Shown here: positions 17,707 to 59,123 of the stretch, one piece after another
Layout of the letters: every line of letters begins with the position of its first letter
Position numbering within the stretch: position 1 is the stretch's first letter
Assembly: GCA_038249055.1 (NCBI GenBank)
Contig: JBBRWS010000003.1
Location: 24,374 to 88,373 of the forward strand
Length of the DNA: 64,000 nt
Direction: 5' to 3'
Origin: Minisyncoccia bacterium
GTDB lineage: Bacteria > Patescibacteriota > Minisyncoccia > Phycocordibacterales > UBA9973
Program-made: the position numbers and the translations under genes
The notes under the pieces: generated by a model
Database searches by the model: none
What the model saw: only the letters and a program-made list of their open reading frames with translations
What the model was told of the DNA's origin: nothing

Positions 17707-17747
17707 GTCATTTATTATATCATATTAACACTACAGAAAACCAAATA

Positions 17748-17786
17748 AAAAACACTTTGATTCAATATCAAAGTGTTTTTTATTTT
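17748..17786. terminator. Hairpin terminator downstream of helicase gene
   Basis: AACACTTTGAT-tcaat-ATCAAAGTGTT followed by TTTTTT. Confidence 0.6.
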
Positions 17787-17797
17787 TAGATTCAAAT

Positions 17798-19162
17798 TTA
17801 ATTTACGAACGTTAAAGCTACTCCAACTTGATTCGCACGGCCAGTACGGCCTATACGGTGAACATAGTCTTCATAAGTAGCAGGAATTTCATAATTAATA
17901 ACGTGGGTAACATTTGGGATATCCAGTCCTCGAGCAGCAACATCAGTTGCAACAAGTATTTGACTATGATTATCTCTAAATGCTTTCAATGCACTTTGGC
18001 GTCTTGATTGATTTTTATCTCCGTGAATTGATTCAGCTTTATACCCTCTTTGAACTAATGTTTGACAAAGTTTTTCAACTCCATGTTTTGTACGTCCAAA
18101 AATAAGAACTTTAGAAAACTCCTTTTTAGATAAAAGAGAATGCAATGAATCAATTTTATCAGAACCATGAGGTACACGAATAATATCTTGATCTACGTTT
18201 CTGGCTGTATCTCCAGTTTTAGTAGAAATCCTTTCAGGATTAGTTAAAAATTCTACAATTAATTTATCAATTTCTTTTGTTATTGTTGCAGAGAATAATA
18301 ATGTTTGACGATTTGGTGCCATATTAGCCATAATAAATCGCATGTCATTTACAAATCCCATGTCGAGCATTCTATCTGCTTCATCAAGAACTATTGTTCT
18401 GAATTCTGCTAGACGAATAACTCTACGGTCAACTAAATCTTTCAAACGTCCAGGAGTACCAATCACTATATTGTGATCTCTGCGTAATCCATAAATTTGA
18501 TTTGAAATACCCATTCCTCCAACACAACATACAGAGTAAATTCTAAGTGCTCCTCTAAATGCCATCAATTCTTCATTAATTTGTGTTGCTAATTCTCGAG
18601 TTGGTACAATTACCAAAACTTTTTCACGAGGATTATTCATAATTTTATCTAATAGTGGAATCAAAAACGCAGCTGTTTTACCAGTTCCTGTATTTGCTAT
18701 ACCAACAACATCACGTCCATTAAGTACAAATGGAATAGCGACGTCTTGAATAGGAGTCGGATTCACATAACCTTTTTGGGTAATGTTATTTTTTAATGTT
18801 GCATGAATTTTAAAATCAGCAAATTTATTTACTGGTATATATGGAGCTGACTCAACTATTGGGTCTGCTTTACATATAAAACGAGAATGGCTTATATTAC
18901 TATCTCCACCATAACGAGGCTTAGAAGATCTTCCACGGTTACCACCGCCACTTGAGCGACTATAACCACCACTAGAACGACCTCCGCTATTGCTACTATT
19001 TGAACGACTATAACCACCACTTGGGCGACTACTACCACTAGTTCCGCGACCAGTAGAAGAACTGCCACGATAACTGCTTCTTTGTCCACTAGAAGATGGA
19101 CGACTTGAACCACCCGAAGATGGCTGACCGGAGCTTCCGCCACGGCTATTTGGTTTATACAT
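17798..19162 (-). CDS. DEAD-box ATP-dependent RNA helicase with ~100-aa Gly/Ser/Arg-rich (RGG/SGG/YSRS) N-terminal low-complexity extension
   Basis: Q motif GYVNPTPIQ, Walker A TGTGKTAAF, DEAD (VLDEADRMLD), SAT, HRIGRTGRA; N-terminus SRGGSSGQPSSGGSSRPSSSGQRSS... Confidence 0.85.
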   Translation of the reverse strand: MYKPNSRGGSSGQPSSGGSSRPSSSGQRSSYRGSSSTGRGTSGSSRPSGGYSRSNSSNSGGRSSGGYSRSSGGGNRGRSSKPRYGGDSNISHSRFICKADPIVESAPYIPVNKFADFKIHATLKNNITQKGYVNPTPIQDVAIPFVLNGRDVVGIANTGTGKTAAFLIPLLDKIMNNPREKVLVIVPTRELATQINEELMAFRGALRIYSVCCVGGMGISNQIYGLRRDHNIVIGTPGRLKDLVDRRVIRLAEFRTIVLDEADRMLDMGFVNDMRFIMANMAPNRQTLLFSATITKEIDKLIVEFLTNPERISTKTGDTARNVDQDIIRVPHGSDKIDSLHSLLSKKEFSKVLIFGRTKHGVEKLCQTLVQRGYKAESIHGDKNQSRRQSALKAFRDNHSQILVATDVAARGLDIPNVTHVINYEIPATYEDYVHRIGRTGRANQVGVALTFVN

Positions 19163-19448
19163 ATTATTTTCCCCAGTCTATAATTATAAAAGTAAGACGG
19201 ACTAGGACCCTTATCCCTTAAGGTTTCCATAAAGACTTTCCATTTGGGATAAGGCGTTATATACAGGCGCTACATGCGCAAGAAAACCATTGAGACTACA
19301 ACTTACTTGACTAGTATATAACTAATAATTATATTTGTCAACCCCACACTTATACCTATATCATTATATACTGTAACCTCGGTTTGATTTCTAAGTCATT
19401 ACGATTTATAAACATAGAAATATAAATACATATGGTCACGAAATAAAT

Positions 19449-19472
19449 AAAACCCCATCTTTGGGGTTTTAT
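19449..19472. terminator. Bidirectional hairpin terminator
   Basis: AAAACCCCA-tctt-TGGGGTTTT. Confidence 0.6.
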
Positions 19473-19484
19473 TGTTATAAAAAA

Positions 19485-19625
19485 TTATTTAGTTTTTTTA
19501 CTAATAGACTTTTTTTTGTCAGTTTTATTATCAAGCATAACTTTTTTGACAGCAAGTCTTTTTGCTGTCTTTTTTGAATGCTTTGATTTTATATGAGGAT
19601 GAAGTGAAGTAGCTCTTTTTGCCAT
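19485..19625 (-). CDS. Tiny Lys/Arg-rich basic protein (46 aa), function unknown
   Basis: ATG..TAA frame giving MAKRATSLHPHIKSKHSKKTAKRLAVKKVMLDNKTDKKKSISKKTK; sits between two terminators; below ORF-track size cutoff. Confidence 0.3.
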   Translation of the reverse strand: MAKRATSLHPHIKSKHSKKTAKRLAVKKVMLDNKTDKKKSISKKTK

Positions 19626-19968: not shown

Positions 19969-20120
19969 ATGATTTTTTTGATTATTTTTGATTGAAACTT
20001 CGACGTGGTTTCTAGTGCCTTAACACAATTACAGTATAACACACTTTTTAAATAAATACATGTATTAACAACAAAGGATAATTTAATATAAAAATACTTA
20101 TATTTTATAATATAAACTAT

Positions 20121-20390
20121 TTATTTTTTAACCTCCATAAATCTCCTCCATTCATCTGCTACATCTGGTGATAATCTATCTAATTCTGTTAATATTATAT
20201 TTCTAATTTCAGACGATAAAATTTTATCTTTCTCTTCTACAAAATCTATTACCTTACTAGAAACTTCATTTACAATTTTATTTATTTCTTCTGGTTCCAA
20301 CTTTGCATCTTGTGCTGCTCTTGTTATTGATCTTATAATTTTTTTAGTATCAAATGGCATTTTTGTACCATTACTTTTTATAACTTGCAT
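20121..20390 (-). CDS. Stand-alone ATP-cone domain protein
   Basis: MQVIKSNGTKMPFDTKKIIRSITRA... matches ATP-cone (NrdR/NrdD N-terminal regulatory domain) pattern; no zinc ribbon. Confidence 0.6.
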   Translation of the reverse strand: MQVIKSNGTKMPFDTKKIIRSITRAAQDAKLEPEEINKIVNEVSSKVIDFVEEKDKILSSEIRNIILTELDRLSPDVADEWRRFMEVKK

Positions 20391-58688: not shown

Positions 58689-59123
58689 TTACTTATTGTG
58701 TTTATTTATTGCCCTAATTATTTTGTCTTGTTCCTCTTGATATAATCCATCTTTACCATATATATAAATATTTTTTCCTGTAGATGGACGATGTAGTATA
58801 AACGGACCAATCCATTCATCTTTATTTTTTTCTAATTTATCAAATATCATTTTTGCAGATTCACTTTCAAGTATTTGCCAAATATTATCTCTTTCCTTAA
58901 ATACATCATAAAATTCTTCAGGTTGTTTTTTAACCATTTTCCAAAAAATATTTGATCTTCTCCAAGAAGAGTAATTATATAAAAATAGTAATGTCCATTT
59001 AATAAAAAGATACAAGCCAATGATTGTGAGTATTAAAAATAACCACTTGGATTTAATAACAAAATATATGCTTAATACAAGAAGTGAAATATCTGCTATT
59101 AAAAATAGTAAAATTATAATCAT
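58689..59123 (-). CDS. Membrane protein (2 TM + cytoplasmic domain); start trimmed to internal Met
   Basis: ORF track starts at 59213 but the first 30 codons are translated from the GC-rich structured element; MIIILLFLIADIS start at 59123 is far more plausible. Confidence 0.5.
   Translation of the reverse strand: MIIILLFLIADISLLVLSIYFVIKSKWLFLILTIIGLYLFIKWTLLFLYNYSSWRRSNIFWKMVKKQPEEFYDVFKERDNIWQILESESAKMIFDKLEKNKDEWIGPFILHRPSTGKNIYIYGKDGLYQEEQDKIIRAINKHNK

Follow-up and report, generated by a model that had tools for sequence, protein, structure and literature searches.

Comparative evidence for a conserved structured leader RNA on the mRNA of an N-terminally tailed DEAD-box helicase in Patescibacteria

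We analyzed a 64,000 nucleotide (nt) stretch of DNA from a Minisyncoccia bacterium (GenBank assembly GCA_038249055.1, contig JBBRWS010000003.1, positions 24,374 to 88,373), referred to here as the window, whose minus strand encodes a canonical DEAD-box RNA helicase of superfamily 2 at 17798-19162 (all positions are those of the window unless another locus is named). Comparison of related loci showed that the 5' leader of the helicase mRNA is a conserved structured RNA with three helices, P1, P2 and P3, that are supported by covariation. The comparative support for this leader was strong and it represents an apparently undescribed family of cis-acting RNAs. An earlier note on this DNA, made from the sequence by a model, had described a structured leader at 19195-19300 that was GC-enriched and contained a 9-bp stem and a GCGC-AUGUA-GCGC hairpin. 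The enrichment, the stem and the hairpin were all found again and the comparison points to a real conserved RNA, but the leader was longer than described, about 144 nt (19306-19163), and the note had missed a third helix, a candidate pseudoknot (PK1), a candidate helix over the start codon (P4) and the conservation of the family.

Three homologues (P0074, P0081 and P0104) carried start codons called too far upstream, through the leader, and the resulting leader peptide resembled the window leader read in another frame, which pointed to conservation of the nucleotides. The upstream regions of related loci had long identical blocks in common, and the G+C fraction of the leader was 0.38-0.44 as compared to 0.21-0.29 in the adjacent intergenic DNA. 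Searching with nhmmer detected the leader in the window and in 63 of the 160 fetched loci, 64 sources in all. A covariance model, R1, was built from four clean sequences and searched against 98 sources, resulting in 65 matches, each directly upstream of a helicase start and on the same strand, with one copy in the window (19307-19154, 143 bits). A second-round covariance model, R2, gave extra, weaker matches upstream of more distant orthologues. Loci with enough upstream sequence were then grouped by the identity of their helicase and scored for the leader. The leader was present in 54 of 56 loci at 70% identity or above, in 5 of 17 at 65-70%, in 3 of 43 at 60-65% and in 0 of 33 below 60%. Rfam 15 searched over 19163-19306 returned no match at the gathering score or at E<=10, the cspA thermoregulator included. 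The literature searches found no account of DEAD-box helicases of Patescibacteria or the candidate phyla, nor of their tails or leaders, and the main text of a 2017 catalogue of 224 RNA motifs contained no helicase-leader motif.

More distant helicase orthologues (60-67% identity; L014 and L017, at ~3000 in each, and L012/L013) had long leaders of their own. These had only the 5' motif (GUAAC..UCUCACUAGUUUU) in common with the leader family and carried a different hairpin beside the AUG. As only the 5' motif is kept at this distance, the leader seems to be both old and fast-evolving.

Pairing was quantified on a model-based alignment of 56 distinct leader sequences. Over P1-P3, 94.4% of cells were paired as compared to 81.7% in shuffles, 19 of 21 pairs showed compensatory changes, and 154 compensatory cells were counted against 44.8+-7.2 in shuffles. 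When the 3' partner was slid by 1-3 columns as a control, pairing was 36-56%. P1 was paired in 98.6% of cells with compensatory changes in all 4 pairs; its variants included GCGC/GCGC, GUGG/CCAC, GUGC/GCAC and AGCAC/GUGCU, and the helix was longer in some homologues. P2, the 9-bp stem of the earlier note, was paired in 90-92% of cells with compensatory changes in 10 of 10 pairs, and P3 was paired in 96.8%. RNAalifold run on a plain MAFFT alignment recovered P3 alone, with 5 of its 7 pairs compensatory; P1 and P2 were missed because indels misaligned both. Among single-sequence folds, 43 of 50 leaders contained P1 in their own minimum-energy fold and 31 of 50 contained P3, and P2 folded on its own in 33 of 50. 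The loops were conserved as well. The P2 loop (..AGUCUUUAUGGAAAC..) was nearly invariant and holds GGAAACC (19228-19222), the 3' strand of PK1, and the P3 loop (CGUCUUACUUUU..) was likewise nearly invariant and contains CUUAC (19196-19192), the 3' strand of a second pseudoknot candidate, PK2. Two other roles for the P2 loop were rejected. A leader peptide starting at the P2-loop AUG was discarded as at least 12 of 50 leaders lack this AUG and the frames differed between homologues, and AGUCU of the P2 loop as a competitor for the 3' arm of P3 did not track the covariation of P3.

Longer-range pairing was assessed by comparing the best-duplex energies among nine unpaired segments (36 segment pairs) in matched and permuted sequences. 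Two pairs stood out in this all-against-all test, namely PK1 (z -3.3, with wider segments) and the start region combined with J1/2, which links P1 to P2 (z -4.7), and the remaining 34 of 36 ranged from z -2.1 to +2.5. PK1 joins GGUUUUC of the 5' block (19288-19282) to its partner in the P2 loop. The duplexes were at -6.02 kcal/mol matched as compared to -5.49+-0.14 permuted (0 of 5000 permutations) and -2.13 kcal/mol with a shuffled partner, and the columns were 85-92% paired. The lengths of the two tracts co-varied, U5 occurring with A5 in L001, L081, L082 and L089, and in L010 a change of GG to GA was matched by a change of AC to AU. P4 pairs J1/2 (19265-19258) with the start region (19163-19156) through the strands UGUAUAUA and UAUGUAUA. 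Its duplexes were at -5.16 kcal/mol matched, -4.56+-0.13 permuted (z -4.7, 0 of 3000) and -1.72+-0.22 with a shuffled J1/2. P4 had a median of 8 bp and was found in the window's own minimum-energy fold; in the best duplex all three start-codon bases were paired in 36 of 50 sequences, and the base opposite the G of the AUG, when paired, was always a pyrimidine (U in 33, C in 9). PK1 and P4 are best described as candidates, supported but not proven by these comparisons. PK2 would join GUAAG at the 5' end (19306-19302) to the P3 loop, with 95% of cells paired and strands that do not vary. Pairing of 5' GUUGUAU with J1/2 was also tried and rejected, with U-to-A changes that were uncompensated and a z of -0.6.

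The helicase promoter, of the sigma-70 type, matched at 11 of 12 positions, better than any other site in the region. TTGACA and TAnnnT were separated by 17 nt (48 loci) or 16 nt (1 locus) in 49 of 50 non-redundant homologous loci, and the -10 hexamer ended 6 nt (46 loci) or 7 nt (3 loci) ahead of the conserved GUAAG. The RNA thus probably starts at GUAAG, near 19306 in the window, which gives the leader its length of about 144 nt. With this promoter and terminator-like hairpins on both sides, the helicase gene looks like a transcription unit of its own (Table 1). A leader of this kind stands out among the genes of the window. An anti-Shine-Dalgarno duplex of <=-5 kcal/mol was found for only 4 of 59 open reading frames (ORFs), and a -10-like hexamer lay within 14 nt of the start codon in 35 of 59 as compared to 21% at random positions, with a modal -10-to-start-codon spacing of 6-7 nt, the usual distance from the -10 hexamer to the transcription start. 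Most mRNAs of the window are probably leaderless or nearly so, which would make a structured leader of 144 nt exceptional. The idea that P3 hides a Shine-Dalgarno site was rejected. The purine run in the 3' arm of P3 was not conserved (L003, L117, L128 and L129), and the genome hardly uses such sites. The leader probably does not act by hiding a ribosome-binding site.

Table 1. Features of the helicase locus and their positions in the window.
Feature	Position	Strand	Details
Terminator-like hairpin 3' of the helicase gene	17743..17785	minus	19-pair stem then T run
DEAD-box RNA helicase gene, 454 amino acids + stop	17798..19162	minus	ORF call, Pfam, homologues
Helicase core, residues 114-454	17801..18823	minus	Pfam, 27-sequence alignment, NCBIfam
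Family-specific linker motif, residues 89-113 (NISHSRFICKADPIVESAPYIPVNK)	18824..18898	minus	Junction of tail and Q motif
N-terminal predicted disordered tail, residues 1-88	18899..19162	minus	Composition, pLDDT, homologues
Imperfect direct repeat in tail-coding DNA	18952..19029	minus	Two 30-nt copies, 87% identical
A/U-rich spacer, start codon (19162-19160) and codons 2-3	19154..19171	minus	Candidate P4 3' strand UAUGUAUA
Conserved structured 5' leader RNA of the helicase mRNA, ~144 nt	19163..19306	minus	nhmmer, covariance model
P3 stem-loop	19172..19206	minus	CCUAGUC 19206-19200 pairs with GACUGGG 19178-19172
P2 stem-loop	19209..19254	minus	CCUUAUCCC 19254-19246 pairs with GGGAUAAGG 19217-19209
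J1/2 linker CUGUAUAUAACG	19255..19266	minus	Between P1 and P2; candidate P4 5' strand 19265-19258
P1 hairpin GCGC-AUGUA-GCGC	19267..19279	minus	Covariation
Nearly invariant 5' block GUAAGUUGUAgUCUCAaUGGUUUUCUU	19280..19306	minus	Most columns invariant or >=90% conserved, 48 sequences
Sigma-70-type promoter	19313..19341	minus	TTGACA 19341-19336, 17-nt spacer, TATACT 19318-19313
Terminator-like hairpin between the upstream small ORF and the helicase promoter	19446..19473	minus	12-pair stem then T run
Conserved 46-amino-acid basic ORF (MAKRATSLHPH.KSKHS.KTAKRL...)	19485..19625	minus	5' of the helicase promoter
Cold-shock-domain protein gene (csp), 65 amino acids	19771..19968	minus	Pfam CSD, E 8.9e-21

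In three loci an inserted element lay exactly between the AUGUAU of the leader and a second AUGUAU that starts the helicase (L010:2861-2976, L093:2396-2521 and L108:2375-2500; 116-126 nt, or 122-132 nt with one flanking repeat). The element had 12-nt terminal inverted repeats (CCCGTTAGAGAT...ATCTCTAAC(A/G)GG), was flanked by a 6-nt direct repeat, ATGTAT, and resembles a miniature transposable element. The insertion makes the original start a short upstream ORF.

The helicase core was as canonical as the earlier note had described it. Both RecA-like domains were present (Pfam DEAD PF00270, E 2.4e-46, residues 136-300; Helicase_C PF00271, E 1.9e-36, residues 335-444), and the signature motifs Q (F..GYxxPTPIQ), I (AxTGTGKT), Ia (PTRELA), II (DEAD), III (SAT) and VI (HRIGRTGR) were all found and were invariant over 27 aligned homologues. 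The Q of the Q motif is residue 139, and the conserved Phe of the motif comes after about 113 residues. At the other end the protein stops 12 residues past motif VI, as do all 27 aligned homologues, none of which had a C-terminal extension; the C-terminal accessory extension of the CshA, RhlE or DeaD type (a dimerisation or basic RNA-binding region) was absent from the helicase. The closest homologues were labelled Candidatus Paceibacterota or Patescibacteria, members of the candidate phyla radiation. NCBIfam alignments began at residues 108-118 and reached the last residue, and by whole-protein score the helicase reached none of the equivalog cut-offs (score/cut-off: CshA 409.9/646, DbpA 343.1/524, RhlE 331.6/743, CsdA 321.9/890, SrmB 307.8/507 and RhlB 297.6/588). 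The nearest solved structures to the core were CshA (5IVL, E 4.9e-88) and Vasa (2DB3). CshA, the Firmicutes degradosome helicase (PDB 5IVL, NCBIfam NF053631), was thus both the top-scoring named family and the best structure for the core, but only positions 1-342 of the 434 in its profile were matched, the CshA C-terminal region is absent here, and the accessory region of the present helicase is N-terminal.

That accessory region, residues 1-88, consists of 32 Ser, 22 Gly and 12 Arg (36%, 25% and 14%), amounting to 75% G+S+R with a net charge of +13. AlphaFold2 run with the 27-sequence alignment gave a predicted local distance difference test score (pLDDT) below 50 at residues 1-92 and 94-102 with a confident core, in agreement with the disorder that had been anticipated. 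By its composition and this model the tail is a low-complexity, strongly basic and predicted disordered extension, and it may serve as an accessory RNA-tethering region. The earlier note had spoken of YSRS and RGG-like repeats. GGYSRS does occur twice, alongside SR and RS dipeptides, but RGG occurs just once (residue 7), so that RGG-like was an overstatement and the tail does not have the clustered di- or tri-RGG of a canonical RGG/RG box. The linker motif that follows the tail had a pLDDT of 39-59, a low model confidence, and held invariant positions in the 27-sequence alignment (I90, S93, K98, A99, P101, P107, Y108 and P110).

Comparison of orthologues for the presence, position and length of the tail showed that each of the 120 closest homologues (69-96% identical) has an N-terminal tail that is basic and of low complexity. 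These start with MYK(Q/P/N)N.R or a close variant, vary from 13 to ~117 residues ahead of the linker motif, and reconverge after the tail on ..(R/K)(F/Y)GG.S.I.HSRFICKADPI. More than 200 homologues kept the tail frame open from the same start, and the first in-frame Met after the start is residue 175, within the core, so the case that would have refuted the earlier note, orthologues starting at a downstream Met, was not found. The common MYK start, the open frame, the reconvergence on the linker motif and the position of the next Met together indicate that the tail is translated and is a family trait rather than the artefact of a mis-called start. In a wider survey of 80 species-representative genomes or loci of Paceibacterota, judged where the N-terminus was readable, nearly all loci had a tail, basic, rich in G, S, R, N and F and typically ~40-150 residues long. 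The tail-plus-motif layout was seen in Taylor-, Yanofsky-, Zambryski-, Adler-, Nomura-, Staskawicz- and Buchananbacteria, and distant Paceibacterota had a diverged form of the linker (I/L-D/H-x-S-R/K-F-I/V-N-K). In the well-studied bacterial helicases the accessory extension is C-terminal, and the remark of the earlier note that such tails are usually C-terminal in bacterial DEAD-box proteins is fair as compared to the helicases of Escherichia coli and Bacillus; within the present lineage, however, the homologues indicate that an N-terminal tail is the rule rather than an oddity. The eukaryotic helicases Ded1, DDX3X, Vasa and LAF-1 also carry a low-complexity basic tail (RG/RGG-rich and disordered) before the DEAD-box core, and Vasa and DDX3X were among the best PDB matches to the present core. 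Unlike these tails, the present one has a single RGG, is Ser-rich (36%) and is built with SR/RS and GGYSRS units. We found no evidence for a common origin of the tails.

The tail is also unstable in length. The tail-coding DNA contains an exact 17-mer twice (18957-18973 and 19005-19021), as the earlier note had seen, but with a start-to-start spacing of 48 nt and not the ~57 it had given. The 17-mers lie within the 30-nt repeat copies, each of which encodes SGGYSRS, and Tandem Repeats Finder reported no array in the tail-coding DNA. Between the window and two 95-96% identical orthologues, in-frame indels of 6, 9, 6 and 3 nt fell within ~130 nt of tail-coding DNA, and indels between such near-identical orthologues concentrated at the direct-repeat region. 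The length instability that had been expected from the repeats thus held, and the tail is hypervariable in length. An ORF of 112 amino acids in another frame (18892-19230, minus strand) spans parts of the leader and of the tail-coding DNA. It does not represent a gene and arises from the stop-poor repetitive tail codons together with the non-conserved P2-loop AUG.

By analogy with helicase leaders described elsewhere, we propose, as the likeliest of the explanations considered though somewhat short of being probable, that the leader would control translation initiation and/or mRNA lifetime as a cis-regulatory gate, with its state set by RNA-remodelling activity. In this explanation the helicase mRNA is made from its own strong promoter and carries the 144-nt leader, which folds into P1, P2 and P3 and probably also into PK1, between the 5' strand and the P2 loop, and P4, between J1/2 and the start region. 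RNA-remodelling activity would then set the conformation of the leader. The likeliest remodeller would be the helicase itself, tethered by its basic tail, and the leader would thus work as a feedback sensor of helicase level. A narrower form of this proposal, which we consider possible yet rather doubtful, is that the leader is a dedicated sensor of RNA-unwinding capacity, with the tailed helicase remodelling its own pseudoknotted 5' untranslated region (UTR) and so holding its activity constant. Under this sensor reading the start codon would be switched between occluded and open, or the 5' end would be exposed to decay.

Two precedents inform the gate proposal. DeaD of E. coli acts on its own 5' UTR, which it probably remodels, to repress its expression, in part via mRNA stability (PMC7430678). 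Like the present leader, the E. coli deaD (csdA) 5' UTR is a long untranslated leader dedicated to a DEAD-box helicase gene, and DeaD likewise has a basic accessory extension and links to cold adaptation; its feedback is leader-dependent and is proposed to act via the helicase remodelling its own mRNA, which is what we propose here by analogy. In E. coli the leader extends over 838 nt, exerts its effect via mRNA stability and Rho termination and lacks a defined conserved fold (PMC7430678), whereas the present leader is 144 nt, compact and covariation-supported with a predicted occlusion of the start codon, and no sequence similarity between the two was found. In land plants, DRH1-type helicase genes carry a conserved RNA structure that senses helicase activity, the specificity of this DEAD element coming from an RGG-containing disordered region of the helicase (bioRxiv 10.64898/2026.01.23.701338). 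The likeness is a conserved structure in the helicase's own transcript, and the sensing role is again proposed here by analogy. The plant element is eukaryotic, acts in alternative splicing and is paired with a C-terminal disordered region, whereas the present leader is a bacterial 5' UTR that could act only on translation or stability, so that the parallel is purely functional.

Several observations weigh against a gate of this design or against the structure it assumes. The pair counts come from an alignment that had been fitted to the structure and so favours it, which is why the independent checks, RNAalifold on the MAFFT alignment and the single-sequence folds, matter. The window leader alone was not significantly better folded than shuffled sequence (z -1.67). 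P2 appeared in the whole-leader minimum-energy fold of just 18 of 50 sequences and a competing UUAUC/GAUAG hairpin was predicted in diverged leaders, and on the basis of these folds the leader may have alternative conformations. The permutation tests ignore the relatedness of the sequences, PK1 showed few true double changes, PK2 is invariant, and P4 is A/U-rich, a type of sequence that pairs readily. The transcription start at ~19306 was placed solely from the promoter. Finally, opening of P4 by the helicase would raise its own translation, giving a positive feedback, unlike the homeostatic negative feedback of the precedents, so that any autoregulation could be of either sign.

The genes upstream of the helicase bear on a further explanation. 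The csp gene lies 608 nt upstream on the same strand, matching the ~600 bp given in the earlier note, and was found upstream on the helicase strand in ~30 loci. It has a conserved leader of its own of ~75 nt (19969-20075, minus strand) behind an extended -10 element (TGTGTTATACT), with the blocks GUGUUAAGRCACAGGAAC and CGUCGAAGUUUCAA common to ~25 loci. The csp leader had no Shine-Dalgarno site, no Rfam match and no motif in common with the helicase leader.

One alternative is that the leader is a thermometer or cold sensor, in which temperature alone switches the hiding of the start codon and the helicase is co-induced with csp. The earlier note had leaned this way, likening the leader to the thermosensing leaders of cold-shock genes. 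The E. coli cspA mRNA is a thermosensor and E. coli deaD is cold-induced, and the present leader resembles cspA and the fourU and ROSE thermometers in being a 5' UTR close to a cold-shock gene in which the start codon is predicted to be paired. The csp linkage favours this explanation, as do related metagenome-assembled genomes from lakes and groundwater. So does the predicted A/U-rich helix over the AUG, which was temperature-dependent in the window, with a predicted unpaired probability of the AUG of 0.03 at 5 C, 0.21 at 37 C and 0.35 at 45 C. However, the AUG is then predicted to be more occluded in the cold, which is the wrong direction for cold induction and corresponds to the heat-induced one. 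In pseudoknot-free models 10 of 12 leaders had a predicted unpaired probability of the AUG of <=0.35 at 5-37 C, in 7 of 12 the AUG stayed paired at every tested temperature, and melting between 5 and 45 C was predicted only in some leaders, such as those of the window and L003. At E<=10 the leader resembled neither the Rfam cspA thermoregulator nor any other family, and it had no motif in common with the adjacent csp leader. Unlike cspA, fourU and ROSE it has extensive near-invariant single-stranded blocks, unexpected for a simple melting element, and a candidate pseudoknot. On balance the thermosensing comparison was not supported, and we consider it unlikely.

A different explanation is that the leader serves mRNA stability or processing, either as a structured 5' end (PK2 together with PK1) that shields the mRNA from 5'-end-dependent nucleases or through a cleavage near the AUG that yields a leaderless mRNA. 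Much of the genome looks leaderless and without Shine-Dalgarno sites, 95% of cells allow pairing between the extreme 5' end and the P3 loop, and DeaD autoregulation runs in part via mRNA stability (PMC7430678), all of which is consistent with such a role. PK2 is an invariant candidate, however, no cleavage site or nuclease was identified, and the strong conservation of helices and loops would go unexplained unless protection were combined with regulated access. We regard this role, taken by itself, as quite improbable.

A riboswitch, in which the pseudoknotted leader binds a small molecule or ion and controls translation of the helicase, would account for the aptamer-like architecture of three helices with conserved junction and loop nucleotides and a candidate pseudoknot, and the candidate start-codon helix could be its expression platform. 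Against this, the leader was tied to one gene family only, the RNA helicase, with no metabolic or transport genes, no Rfam riboswitch matched, and the gene context suggests no ligand, which makes a riboswitch very unlikely. That the conserved block is not RNA at all, being an upstream ORF or promoter-proximal DNA with the Gly/Ser/Arg region untranslated, is effectively excluded: the P2-loop AUG does open short ORFs in many leaders and a start was called through the leader in the three homologues mentioned above, but that AUG is replaced in the leaders that lack it (UAUCGG, UAUUGG, UAUAGA, UAUAAA), indels shift the reading frame between homologues, the changes in the helices are compensatory and not synonymous, and the open tail frame with no in-frame Met before residue 175 argues for translation of the tail.

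Other features of the window were noted. Between csp and the helicase the 46-amino-acid ORF has the pattern MAKRATSLHPH.KSKHS.KTAKRLAVKKVML.. and gave tblastn matches in 34 sources (33 fetched loci, from among L001-L005 and L081-L130, plus the window). It lay nearly always within a few hundred nt of the helicase, or in a few cases ~1 kb, on the upstream side, and a terminator follows it; most of these loci have the ORF placed between csp and the helicase. It matched nothing in Pfam or NCBIfam even at E<=10, and may encode a small, so far unrecognised protein associated with the ribosome or with RNA. Upstream of csp (20121-20390, minus strand) is a stand-alone 89-amino-acid ATP-cone protein (PF03477, E 5e-15) with weak similarity to NrdR and to the N-termini of ribonucleotide reductases. 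The only Rfam gathering-score match in the window was a LOOT RNA (RF03000) at 59184-59320 on the minus strand, full length and with 62.4 bits (gathering score 46.4). The ORF at 58689-59213 runs ~30 nt into it at its called GTG start, which is therefore probably mis-called.

The leader would add to the candidate phyla radiation a cis-regulatory RNA family found neither in Rfam 15 nor in the literature searched, and as it is short and rich in covariation, exists in dozens of natural variants and is attached to one helicase, feedback or sensing is directly testable. The homologues further indicate that in this lineage the putative RNA-tethering disordered region of the helicase is N-terminal and evolves rapidly in length. 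One long structured leader among genes that are free of Shine-Dalgarno sites and apparently leaderless bears on how translation starts in reduced bacteria. If the sensor reading were true, the plant DEAD element and the E. coli deaD UTR would have in this leader a counterpart that is compact and structurally defined.

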